This document shows positions 42,952-45,808 of a DNA stretch of 64,000 nucleotides, one piece after another. The position numbers and the translations under genes were made by a program. Under the pieces are notes generated by a model that ran no database searches, was not told the DNA's origin, and was given only the letters and a program-made list of their open reading frames with translations. The stretch spans positions 4,641 to 68,640 of the forward strand of contig DAOVIO010000004.1 in assembly GCA_030673645.1 (NCBI GenBank), in the 5' to 3' direction. Source of the DNA: Bacteroidales bacterium. GTDB lineage: Bacteria; Bacteroidota; Bacteroidia; Bacteroidales; GCA-2748055. Every line of letters starts with the position of its first letter. Position 1 is the first letter of the stretch.

Positions 42952-44991
42952 ATGAAAAAAATAATTTTTATCATCGTCGTTTTCAGCAACTTTTGGCCTG
43001 CTTTTTCCTACAATAAGGATACAACATATTGGTCACCCGAATTCAGCATGGCATTTGAATTGCCTGGCCAGACAGTTATTTCACATAATGGCAAATACAT
43101 TGCCTATGTGGTTAGAGAAGCACTTACAGAGGGTGAAAAGTCTGAATATCTAAATCATATATGGCTTGCTGCCACTGATGGATCTTTCAATTATCAATAT
43201 ACACAAGGCGACAAATCCTGTTCTTCTCCTCAATTTTCTCCTGATGGTGAATTTCTCAGCTTTACTTCATCCCGTGATGATACAAGTCAGATTTATATAA
43301 TGAGAATTTTGGGTGGTGAAGCAGAAAAAATTAGTGATGCTGAAAATGGAGTTGAAAGTTATAAATGGTCTGCCGACTCAAAGAAAATTGCTTTTACTAT
43401 GACCGATCCTGAAACAGAGAAGGAAAAAACAGAGAAGGAAGAAAAGCGTGATATAATATTCACCGATAAGAACTTCAAAAATAATCATATATACACCCTA
43501 GATCTGGAAAAGTCTGAGTGTGGAAAAAGAAATACTATTCAAATTACATCTGGGGAATTTAGTGTGAATGGTTTCGATTGGTCACCCGATGGTGCAAGTA
43601 TCGTTTTCTCCCATCAACCTGAACCAACTATAAATTCCGGATTTATTGAATCTGATATTTCAATTGTGGCCTCCGATTCTGGAGCTATTGTTAGCCTTAT
43701 TAAAAGGCCAGGCGTTGACAGCAATCCTAAATTTTCTCCCAACGGTAAAGTAATTGCTTATGAATCGAATGGTGGGAAACCAGAGGCGGTTGGACTTACA
43801 GATATCTGGACAGTATCGGCTAATGGCGGAAAAACTCTAAGCTTACAGGAAACACCGAATAGGGATGCAAATCTGATAGGATGGTCACCGGACGCTAAAA
43901 GTATATATGTAAGTGAAGCTATTGGTACTTCCTCTCATCTTCTTTCTCTTGAAGTTAAGGGAGAATCGATTTCAATTGTTAGTTTGGGGAATATTGTTTA
44001 TTCAGAAAGAAGCACAAAAACACTTTCGAACAGCTTAGGTACCAGAAGTAGATTCAGCATTAGTTCAAAAGTAGATGCAGCTGCTTTTATTTATGAAGAT
44101 ACAGAAACCTTACCACAAGTATTTTATTCAAATACTTTTCCATTCAATCAAAAACAAATTAGTCAACTTAACGAAAATGTTGAGCTACCCGACATGGCGA
44201 AAACGGAACTAATTAGTTGGAAGTCGTCAGATGGTTTGGAAATTGAAGGATTGCTGACCTACCCTATGAATTATAAAGAAGGAGAAAAATACCCTGTAAT
44301 TCTTAATGTTGATGGAGGTCCTGGAGGAGTATATCAACAAAGTTTTACAGGAAAACCATCTATATATTTATTGCAATATTTTGCCGAAAATGGATATGCA
44401 ATTATAAGACCCAATCCAAGAGGCAGCACCGGATATGGTAAAGAATTCAGATATGCAAATGTTCGCGATTGGGGATATGGCGATTATGAAGATTTACTTT
44501 CAGGAGTAAATGCAGTAATTGAAATGGGTATTGCAGATGAAGATCAGCAGTACCTCATGGGTTGGAGTTATGGCGGATATATGACCGGTTTTATGGTAAC
44601 CAAAACTGATCGTTTTAATGCTGCCAGTATGGGAGCCGGATTACCAAACCTTGTGAGTATGACTACCACAACAGATATTCCAGAGTATCTTGTAGCACAT
44701 ATGGGAGGAAAAGAATTTTGGGAAGATTATGAGGCTTATGAAAAACATTCCGCCATTTACAGAATTAAGAATGTGAAAACACCTACTCAGGTTATTCACG
44801 GACAAAATGATTTCAGAATACCTTTCACACAAGGACAGGAATTTTATGTTGCTTTAAAGAGATTGGGGGTTCCTACAGAAATGATTGTTCTTCCACGAAC
44901 GCCTCACGGACCTAGGGAGCCTAAGTTACAGATGGCGGTTAGTCCGTTGATATTGGATTGGTTTCGTCGGTATGGGGAGATTCAGCCATAG
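42952..44991 (+). CDS. S9 family peptidase (acylaminoacyl-peptidase-like)
   Basis: PD40/TolB-like repeats (FSPDG, WSPDG), NPRGSTGYG, GWSYGG, D.R.P, PHG. Confidence 0.92.
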   Translation: MKKIIFIIVVFSNFWPAFSYNKDTTYWSPEFSMAFELPGQTVISHNGKYIAYVVREALTEGEKSEYLNHIWLAATDGSFNYQYTQGDKSCSSPQFSPDGEFLSFTSSRDDTSQIYIMRILGGEAEKISDAENGVESYKWSADSKKIAFTMTDPETEKEKTEKEEKRDIIFTDKNFKNNHIYTLDLEKSECGKRNTIQITSGEFSVNGFDWSPDGASIVFSHQPEPTINSGFIESDISIVASDSGAIVSLIKRPGVDSNPKFSPNGKVIAYESNGGKPEAVGLTDIWTVSANGGKTLSLQETPNRDANLIGWSPDAKSIYVSEAIGTSSHLLSLEVKGESISIVSLGNIVYSERSTKTLSNSLGTRSRFSISSKVDAAAFIYEDTETLPQVFYSNTFPFNQKQISQLNENVELPDMAKTELISWKSSDGLEIEGLLTYPMNYKEGEKYPVILNVDGGPGGVYQQSFTGKPSIYLLQYFAENGYAIIRPNPRGSTGYGKEFRYANVRDWGYGDYEDLLSGVNAVIEMGIADEDQQYLMGWSYGGYMTGFMVTKTDRFNAASMGAGLPNLVSMTTTTDIPEYLVAHMGGKEFWEDYEAYEKHSAIYRIKNVKTPTQVIHGQNDFRIPFTQGQEFYVALKRLGVPTEMIVLPRTPHGPREPKLQMAVSPLILDWFRRYGEIQP

Positions 44992-45221
44992 GCTGAATGG
45001 GAGACATCCCGATTTGCATCGGGATTGGGGAGGCGTTCCTGATGGAACTTGGGAGACCCAGCGGTAGCTGGTTGGGAGGCGTTACTGTCGGAATTTGGGA
45101 GGTTCAACCTGTGGTTGATTGGGAGGTGTTCCTACGGAACTTGGGAGGTACAGCCGTAGATGTTTGGGAGATATCTGGGAGGCTCCGGATTTGGGAGGGT
45201 AAATATGTGATTGGTTGGGGG
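44973..45221 (+). repeat. Left array: 11 TTGGGAG-like cores separated by variable mini-hairpin spacers
   Basis: Cores at 44973, 44998, 45025, 45049, 45072, 45095, 45119, 45141, 45164, 45191, 45215; period about 22-27 bp. Confidence 0.9.
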
Positions 45222-45328
45222 ATGATTGAAAAATTGTTTATTCAGAATAAAAAAATCCAAAAAAACTTAATTTCTTGTGCGTTTTTTTGACGTTTTTTCC
45301 ATTAAGAAGAGAATCAATATTTACTGTC

Positions 45329-45700
45329 GTGGAAAAATCAATTCGATCACACAAAGATCTGGATATTTGGAAAATATCAATATTAATGGTTAAAGAAACC
45401 TATCTTATAACTAAATCTTTTCCAGTCACAGAAAAATTTGGACTTACAAGTCAAATGCAACGATCAGCCGTATCTATACCAAGTAATATTGCAGAAGGTG
45501 CGGCAAGAAAATCAACAAAAGAATATATAAACTTTCTTAGTATTGCCCTGGGATCTTTGTCTGAATTAGAAACTCAATACATCATAGCAAGTCAGTTGCA
45601 ATATTGTGAGTTTTCCAAAACATCTGAGCAAGAATTTATTAATTTGAAAAAAATGATTCGAGCATTAATGAATAAGCTATCAAACAAAATCAATAATTGA
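45329..45700 (+). CDS. Four-helix-bundle protein (23S rRNA intervening-sequence protein family, Avd-like)
   Basis: HKDLDIWK, FP..EKFGLTSQMQRSAVSIPSNIAEG..R, FL.IALGSL.ELETQ; probable GTG start at 45329. Confidence 0.92.
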   Translation: MEKSIRSHKDLDIWKISILMVKETYLITKSFPVTEKFGLTSQMQRSAVSIPSNIAEGAARKSTKEYINFLSIALGSLSELETQYIIASQLQYCEFSKTSEQEFINLKKMIRALMNKLSNKINN

Positions 45701-45704
45701 AATT

Positions 45705-45808
45705 CTCCCAACCAACCACAAATTAGTCTCCCAAATCCAGTATTTCCCGGATATCTCCCAATCAACCTCAGGCTGAACCTCCCCAGCAGCTACCGCTGTG
45801 CCTCCCGA
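45705..45808 (-). repeat. Right array: 5 inverted cores (CTCCCAA) with spacers mirroring the left array
   Basis: Cores at 45705, 45728, 45755, 45779, 45802; spacers are reverse-complement relatives of left spacers 10, 9, 6 and 4. Confidence 0.85.

Follow-up and report, generated by a model that had tools for sequence, protein, structure and literature searches.

A four-helix-bundle gene framed by inverted repeat arrays in a Bacteroidales genome: a cassette design found across phyla and its likeness to 23S rRNA intervening sequences

What is a small four-helix-bundle gene doing between two mirror-image arrays of short repeats? The question is raised by a locus in a Bacteroidales bacterium of the GCA-2748055 lineage (GenBank assembly GCA_030673645.1), where we analyzed a 64,000-nucleotide (nt) stretch of contig DAOVIO010000004.1 (positions 4,641 to 68,640; here “the window,” in whose coordinates positions are given unless a contig is named). 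In this window, a gene of the PF05635 family stands between a G-rich array and its inverted counterpart. We found that this gene-plus-inverted-arrays design is general across phyla. By analogy, the window element is best read as a protein-operon counterpart, outside rRNA, of the open reading frame (ORF)-bearing intervening sequences (IVS) of 23S rRNA genes. More specifically, we propose with about even confidence that it is one copy of a widespread cassette that is transcribed by read-through and in which pairing of the arms creates a long stem used for processing, protein docking, or both. The preliminary description of the locus had already taken gene and arrays for one compact module, and the same design surrounds most homologues tested; it overlooked the closest precedent, the ORF-bearing 23S rRNA IVS.

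The left (5′) arm (44973..45222, + strand) is G-rich on the plus strand and contains 12 GGGAG-type cores spaced 11 to 29 nt apart, which lie at 44975-45217 when the degenerate forms GGGAG, GGGGAG, and GGGGG are allowed. The right (3′) arm (45704..45817, − strand) has 5 inverted cores (CTCCCAA three times, CCTCCCC, and CCTCCCG). Units in the window element are 22 to 29 nt long. The arrays reported earlier are therefore real, with one left core more than the 11 then counted. Exact TTGGGAG occurs 14 times in the window, with 10 occurrences within 45049-45761 (7 on the plus strand, 22 to 27 nt apart, and 3 on the minus strand). It is this clustering that stands out, not the window-wide count, which is unremarkable (8.4 ± 2.7 expected; at least 14 in 4 of 100 shuffles). 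Of the 12 left units, 6 have a hairpin in the central spacer, the stems measuring 8, 8, 5, 5, 6, and 5 bp; a seventh hairpin that had been proposed (atctgg/ccggat) runs across an additional core and can form only with a G-T pair. Compared with 500 shuffles, each of the two 8-bp stems is rare by itself (P ≤ 0.004), and the 5- to 6-bp stems are weak when taken singly (P of 0.12 to 0.21). Left units 5 and 8 resemble decayed copies.

The two arms pair at 45051-45079 with 45778-45806 (86% identity), at 45161-45202 with 45723-45764 (79%), and at 45202-45222 with 45704-45724 (86%), and a further pair spans 62 nt at 73%. Because the alignments fall in this way, the right units correspond to mirrored left units about 4, 6, 9, 10, and 11, in agreement with the mirrored order noticed at the outset. 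The predicted RNA fold of 44960-45830 has a free energy of −295.2 kcal/mol versus −220.6 ± 6.4 kcal/mol for 20 shuffles (z of −11.7); in this fold, the two arrays are paired around the ORF, and left units that lack a partner form side hairpins. A repeat search of 44900-45900 recovered the arrays and otherwise only short, chance-level pairs; no search was aimed at a template/variable repeat pair.

Between the arms lies a 123-amino-acid (aa) gene (45329..45700, + strand) of the PF05635/TIGR02436 four-helix-bundle family (“23S rRNA intervening-sequence protein”). Its match to PF05635 scores 118 bits (cutoff, 33.8; E value, 2.7e-34) and covers profile positions 1 to 105 of 106, and the match to TIGR02436 (“four helix bundle protein”) scores 113.2 bits versus a cutoff of 24. 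The mechanically called ORF starts at a TTG at 45275; we took the GTG at 45329 as the start because alignments with homologues begin some 8 codons ahead of the HKDL motif. The nearest solved structure is that of Xanthomonas XCC0516 (2gsc_A; E value, 3e-28), deposited with five chains, and a phage collection had no protein match to the gene. The AT-rich leader between the left arm and the start codon (45223..45328, + strand) holds a TTTTTCCATTAAG motif that is also present in other copies in this genome. A promoter scan returned one weak sigma-70-like match (45287-45314), promoter-like sites being no commoner than in shuffles, and a terminator scan found none. A conserved leader, GGCTGAT(T)n ... 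ACATTAA, about 20 nt ahead of the start codon, is common to several Bacteroidota PF05635 genes (L118, L121, L142, and L007) and precedes at least 2 unrelated ORFs of this genome (contigs C150:23216 and C264:13983); this is probably a promoter or leader motif particular to the lineage, and the window leader carries only its CCATTAAG half.

The element is an insert. Upstream of it is a co-oriented gene for an S9 prolyl-oligopeptidase-family peptidase (42952..44991, + strand), and downstream is a convergent gene for a DUF2797 protein (45790..46641, − strand). The first left-arm unit encodes the last codons and stop of the peptidase ORF, and the outer right arm encodes those of the DUF2797 ORF. 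Among 29 relatives with a DUF2797 homologue, adjacency of the two genes is kept only in G007, from the same family and another genus, where their stop codons overlap with zero spacer. This is an empty site of the kind that the preliminary description proposed to look for at this junction, and the approximately 850 bp that separate the pair in the window are therefore an insertion, which gave both host proteins, the S9 peptidase and DUF2797, new C-terminal tails. A same-genus genome (G001) has another gene order and no cassette at the S9/DUF2797 junction. No target-site duplication was identified in a comparison of the junctions with one 65%-identical relative, which is too diverged for one to be called.

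A search of sequencing runs for the locus returned 4 DNA runs, all of one cold-seep metagenome study, and no RNA run. In the contigs of these runs, the cassette is whole in two (X1 and X2) and in pieces in the others (X3 and X4). These contigs show strain differences and, following 45133 in the left arm, an insertion of 1 nt. They contain neither an empty-site joint nor a change in unit number, so the differences in spacer number anticipated earlier did not appear in them. One X4 contig has a joint inside the ORF that skips 103 letters; its shorter side is just 24 letters, and it was given no weight. Other neighbors scanned were DUF5916, MFS, PadR, and PspC proteins. The ORFs tested from 40.6 to 50.3 kb gave no match to a cas, reverse transcriptase, or transposase family, and RVT_1 had 0 matches in the whole assembly (94.5% complete).

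The design recurs around homologues. We fetched 80 homologous loci (45 to 65% identity) from Cloacimonadota, Bacteroidota, Nitrospirota, Planctomycetota, Chloroflexota, Campylobacterota, Patescibacteria, and other phyla. All loci came from searches seeded with one protein or one profile, and related genomes are non-independent samples. Each was given an inverted-flank score by aligning the 300 nt upstream with the reverse complement of the 300 nt downstream, with a threshold of 24 (the 95th percentile of the scores that 259 shifted pairs from these loci gave as controls). Inverted arms exceeded the threshold at 56 of the 75 loci with full flanks, versus 14 of 75 in direct orientation; homologues thus do not lack flanking arrays, and on inspection several low-scoring loci also have short inverted arrays of related 8-mers. 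The threshold was also exceeded at 17 of 23 loci in relatives of this genome, at 23 of 28 loci in a Cyanobacteriota sample (controls, 7 of 110), and at 8 of 10 loci in two further genomes. The pass rate at homologues is 75 to 82%, versus ∼5 to 6% for shifted controls; because the sets share loci (L139 is L007, L172 is L035, L173 is L062, and L174 is L061), their counts cannot be summed. A genome-wide ORF scan is the better control, since shifted controls are mostly coding sequence. Among the 3,052 ORFs of this genome, PF05635 genes rank 4, 5, 13, and 22 for inverted flanks (top 0.7%), and genes resembling repetitive extragenic palindromic (REP)-associated tyrosine transposases (RAYTs), the positive control, rank 1, 3, and 7.

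The family is widespread and patchy. PF05635 hits occur in 22 of 25 relatives, at 1 to 16 per genome, and in 40 of 81 sampled Cyanobacteriota genomes. The homologues nearest to the window protein belong to other phyla, and homologues are found on 40 plasmid records. On two of the plasmids, alpha and gamma of Nostoc sp. PCC 7120 (L213 and L214), near-identical four-helix-bundle genes lie directly 3′ of transposase genes (ISL3-family by annotation in L214) and retain the 3′ heptamer array only (CTCTGCC-type). Insertion sequences seem to have captured or truncated these copies, which, with a transposase directly upstream and a 3′ array only, represent the cassette poorly.

Almost without exception, arms consist of units of 7 to 8 nt, or multiples thereof, in tandem (GTGAATGA, GATGCGT, GTGACGA, CAAGAAC, and GGCACAAA). 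Those in cyanobacteria are built of heptamers (GTCATTA/TTGGTCA, GGGGACT, and GTGCTGA), which we take to be of the short tandemly repeated repetitive (STRR) kind, and a relative of this genome (L122) has TAACTGA-type units. One cyanobacterial locus (L193) combines a core with palindromic spacers in the style of the window. Since the usual arm is a 7- to 8-nt repeat and L193 shares the window style, the window is a long-unit variant and no singleton. The hairpin spacers, which the preliminary description proposed to look for around other genes of the family, and the 23-nt unit are accordingly local, the usual arm being a plain 7- to 8-nt tandem repeat.

This genome has 6 PF05635 hits, 4 of which have inverted-repeat flanks, each with its own unit; the other copies have purine-rich GAGGGA-type units (C188), CTGGTTA heptamers (C132), and AAGTACTTAAAGT units (C19). 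One cassette sits between gmd and a fucose synthase gene. Within C188, a 16-nt array of TCACCCCACCACTCCA ×5 (C188:10339-10421) lies in frame within a GDP-mannose 4,6-dehydratase ORF and translates to a His/Pro/Thr-rich insert (SSHPITPSPHHPITPPLHHP...) just ahead of the conserved C-terminal part; the next spacer contains a PF05635 cassette.

Cassettes are placed in a consistent manner with respect to host genes. Both neighboring long ORFs, called without a gene finder, are co-oriented with the PF05635 gene at 59 of 80 loci, and both are antisense at 2 of 80. The median start of the 5′ arm lies 4 nt ahead of the point at which the stop codon of the upstream ORF ends, and in 32 of 50 loci the start is within −10 to +20 nt of that point. 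Arms have a median length of 33 nt, and 46 of 56 upstream arms are G-rich. Median distances are 22 nt from the arm end to the protein match and 15 nt from the stop to the arm start. Host spacers include that between groES and groEL (L061) and, in Paludibacter, one between methylmalonyl-CoA mutase genes.

One locus could be followed through six Paludibacter species (L043, L046, L048, L059, L064, and L069). Identity is 96 to 97% in the arms and 84% at third codon positions of the ORF, whereas at third positions it is 52% and 66% in the host genes on either side. The cassette has thus diverged much less than its neighbors, which implies strong nucleotide-level constraint or recent interspecies spread. 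In L048, there is an additional insert of ∼60 nt, together with a second 3′ array.

Which known system does this anatomy resemble most? ORF-bearing IVS that encode an S23p/PF05635 protein are familiar from the 23S rRNA genes of Leptospira, Coxiella, Xanthomonas, and Brucella. In PMC4990558, the PF05635 ORF of such an IVS is described as sense to the rRNA, with complementary termini that make a ∼28-bp stem cut by RNase III; the IVS are described there as sporadic in distribution and as gained by horizontal transfer, and no function is given for the ORF. On that account, 23S IVS and cassettes share the PF05635 protein, complementary termini forming a stem (in the window, the arms pair with the z score given above), sense orientation, and sporadic distribution, and the 28-bp stem of the characterized case is close to the median cassette arm of 33 nt. 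The two differ in host, which for cassettes is a string of protein-coding genes rather than helix 25 or 45 of 23S rRNA; the window element lies between S9 peptidase and DUF2797 genes, not inside a 23S rRNA gene. They also differ in their termini, the IVS having a single unique inverted repeat and the cassettes tandem arrays, of 23-nt units with hairpin spacers in the window. Our literature search, which left out subscription journals, database comments, and supplements (e.g., the gene tables of PMC4679880), found no account of inverted arrays around PF05635 genes outside rRNA. ORF-bearing 23S IVS were known already, and what appears to be new here is an IVS-like element outside rRNA with tandem-array arms.

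We prefer the IVS-like reading because it accounts for the same gene, complementary arms of similar length, and sense orientation to the host transcript. Under it, transcription would enter from the S9 peptidase gene, where the read-through probably originates, perhaps aided by a weak internal promoter. The G-rich 5′ array would then pair with the C-rich 3′ array in the RNA, and unpartnered units would form small hairpins of their own, so that the ORF would come to lie in the loop of a long, interrupted stem. This stem would be the working part: it may be a substrate of a double-strand-specific RNase such as RNase III, by analogy with the excision reported for the described 23S IVS, and it may dock the encoded oligomer. 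It could in this way let the ORF be expressed from the host transcript while insulating the host genes. In having no evident promoter of their own, imperfect inverted repeats, and sense orientation to an upstream promoter, the cassettes would work somewhat like those of integrons. They differ from integron cassettes in having no integrase and no attC architecture, in carrying tandem arrays at both ends, and in being scattered singly in ordinary operons.

Several observations weigh against this reading. Arm mismatches in 60 loci lack the G·U bias to be expected of arms kept as an RNA helix (98 G:T or T:G versus 107 A:C or C:A; P of 0.58), and 286 of 491 are transversions, a pattern which implies that what many arms have in common is a repeat family more than exact complementarity. 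Arm lengths frequently differ within a locus, as in the window, with 12 versus 5 units. The operon setting is only half realized in the window, since the DUF2797 gene is convergent. TGGGAG-type and other arrays exist without the gene, and an inverted partner was found within 700 nt in only 29 of 256 array/side tests, most short arrays standing alone. A search of Rfam gave no relevant family and no rRNA match within 44000-47000. Finally, orthologues conserve the arm sequence itself, beyond pairing, and this conservation fits sequence-specific recognition equally well.

Such recognition is the core of a second explanation, which we regard as possible although of clearly lower probability. The arrays would be cognate binding sites, with an oligomer binding the units as RNA, single-stranded DNA, or double-stranded DNA, one subunit or surface per unit; arm pairing would be secondary, and the protein would autoregulate or form a ribonucleoprotein. 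This was the idea of the preliminary description, and it is compatible with the IVS-like reading. Tandem units suit a multimeric binder, and the nearest solved relative, 2gsc, has 5 chains. Avd, the accessory protein of diversity-generating retroelements (DGRs), binds nucleic acid and reverse transcriptase. It has a homologous fold and is an oligomeric helical bundle in the part of PMC10053308 available, and the window protein weakly matches Avd models, under their cutoffs (NF033474 equivalog, 19.7 bits versus 80; PF22296 bAvd, 17.6 versus 40); in contrast to a DGR, no reverse transcriptase was found in this genome. Across loci, arm 6-mer content follows protein similarity (Spearman coefficient, 0.41; reached by 0 of 500 permutations). 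However, once closer pairs (normalized score of ≥0.55) were removed, the correlation was 0.037, a value reached by 130 of 500 permutations. Because the correlation vanishes without the closer pairs, a deep protein-to-repeat code was ruled out. Also counting against cognate sites, a 63%-identical copy in a same-genus genome has quite different units (GTGGTCTC), and the commonest array families of this genome (GTGGTTGA and TGTGCTGG) have no matching cassette.

A third explanation, which we consider unlikely, is that the cassette moves as DNA. The arms would be terminal inverted repeats or hairpin ends handled by an enzyme in trans, after the manner of REP/RAYT systems or miniature inverted-repeat transposable elements (MITEs), and solo arrays would be nonautonomous relics. 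The architecture parallels that of RAYT genes between inverted REP arrays, which this genome contains, in that a small gene lies between inverted, hairpin-prone short repeats that are also dispersed in clusters and that gene copies have differing repeat classes. TGGGAG-type arrays without the gene occur at ∼11 other loci of this genome (on C14, C32, C55, C66, C135 [two], C201, C208, C218, C245, and C258), and a three-core pattern gives 20 hits in this genome versus 0 in each of two same-genus genomes (G001 and G002). The empty site in G007, the existence of hairpin pairs without an ORF, the patchy copy number, the nearest homologues in other phyla, the plasmid-borne homologues, and the Paludibacter cassette that is less diverged than its flanks would all fit mobility of this kind. 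Nevertheless, the cassette protein is a small four-helix bundle rather than a Y1 (HUH) enzyme, the Y1_Tnp hits of the genome being on other contigs, and to our knowledge no catalytic activity has been recognized or predicted for PF05635 proteins. No transposase is adjacent, no target-site duplication was identified, and the paralogues of the window gene that tblastn finds in this genome are at most 38% identical, so none is near-identical. The sense bias (59 versus 2) would not be expected from DNA transposition alone and is not, as far as we know, a RAYT feature. Moreover, no empty-site form appeared in the contigs of the four metagenome runs.

Units of the RAYT type were seen in their own right. 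On C190 (4980-5474; whole unit, 4800-5685), a 164-aa RAYT-like ORF with an HxH motif, IS200-like, lies between inverted arrays of an 18- to 23-nt repeat, as is classical for REP/RAYT units; three other places (C253:642-1088, C116:403-858, and C31:5061-5675) have a similar look.

Chance would be a very improbable explanation. It would hold that slippage makes microsatellite-like arrays so often in this genome that two came to lie beside the gene, and arrays are indeed plentiful (Tandem Repeats Finder [TRF] listed 766 nonredundant tandem repeats in the 4.36-Mb assembly, 256 of them with a period of 6 to 50 and at least 2.8 copies); this is opposed by the unit-by-unit match of the arms in mirrored order, by the recurrence in unrelated genomes, and by the rank of PF05635 genes within the top 0.7% of ORFs for inverted flanks. 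That the locus is an array of the type of clustered regularly interspaced short palindromic repeats (CRISPR) or a degenerate DGR, as regular repeats with variable spacers and an Avd homologue might suggest, has negligible probability, as the preliminary description held for CRISPR and canonical DGRs, given a conserved core of only 5 to 7 nt, spacers that are interrelated and mirrored on the other side, no cas family among the neighbors tested, no RVT_1 in the assembly, and an Avd equivalog score far below its cutoff.

How do the cassettes relate to arrays that stand without a gene? Short tandem intergenic repeats such as STRR and TAACTGA have been catalogued for decades. Their function is given as unknown and their binding partner as unidentified in published work (PMC2670836, PMC4679880, and bioRxiv 10.1101/2022.06.06.494920). 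An unidentified, possibly mobile, repeat-binding protein is called for there (PMC4679880 and bioRxiv 10.1101/2022.06.06.494920) and has been proposed to explain the spread of heptamers among Beggiatoaceae, cyanobacteria, and Bacteroidetes (PMC4679880), which also lends some support to the binding-site explanation. In the available text of PMC4679880, there are 0 occurrences of “intervening sequence,” “four helix,” or “S23.” Like the STRR heptamers of cyanobacteria and the TAACTGA repeats of Beggiatoaceae, cyanobacteria, and some Bacteroidetes, most cassette arms are 7- to 8-nt intergenic arrays. Those repeats are treated as solo direct repeats in the literature as available, and the window differs from them in having units of 22 to 29 nt rather than 7-nt tandem units.

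The repeat landscape of this metagenome-assembled genome, of Bacteroidota type and from a cold seep, is STRR-like. Its dominant array families comprise a few 7- to 8-nt units (GTGGTTGA, TGTGCTGG, and GTTACTG/CCAGTAA) and compounds of 13, 14, 16, 24, and 32 nt. Around the solo TGGGAG-type arrays, the surrounding genes show no consistent orientation rule. On C135, two direct-orientation TGGGAG-type arrays (209-311 and 1609-1687) enclose a small ORF pair in which an 84-aa ORF is upstream of one that, by eye from its translation, is PemK/MazF-type toxin-like. Elsewhere in the window, a 95-aa GIY-YIG gene (26632-26919, − strand; PF01541, E value of 5e-15) has an inverted-flank score of 36, above the 99th percentile genome-wide. 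A MITE-like palindromic element of GTCATCCTGAAC / GTTCAGGATGAC repeats covers window positions 1-19 and continues just upstream of the window (C187:4224-4659); its inverted-flank score of 92 is the second in the genome, and the enclosed 111-aa ORF looks spurious. At 63170-63292 (C187:67810-67932), TRF found a 17-nt CTCAATAACCAAAGC-like unit ×4.5 and an 8-nt CACATCAG unit ×3.5.

A broader conjecture, which we offer tentatively and as rather doubtful, is that PF05635 proteins are the missing trans partners of short tandem intergenic repeats, including STRRs, TAACTGA-type repeats, and the 7- to 8-nt arrays of this genome. The gene with its inverted arrays would then be a self-propagating unit that crosses phyla, seeds or maintains solo arrays, and leads an RNA-level life in host operons, with the 23S rRNA IVS as one special landing site.

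For the family, the finding joins two puzzles. Annotations label genes of PF05635/TIGR02436 “S23 ribosomal protein” or “four helix bundle protein.” Structures have been solved, yet we know of no role for them beyond kinship with Avd. This unexplained family and the unexplained intergenic repeats may be one thing. The array-gene-array design, the sense orientation, and the likeness to IVS make both puzzles open to bench tests, and if the arms do insulate an ORF inserted in an operon, they would offer a natural design principle for synthetic operons.

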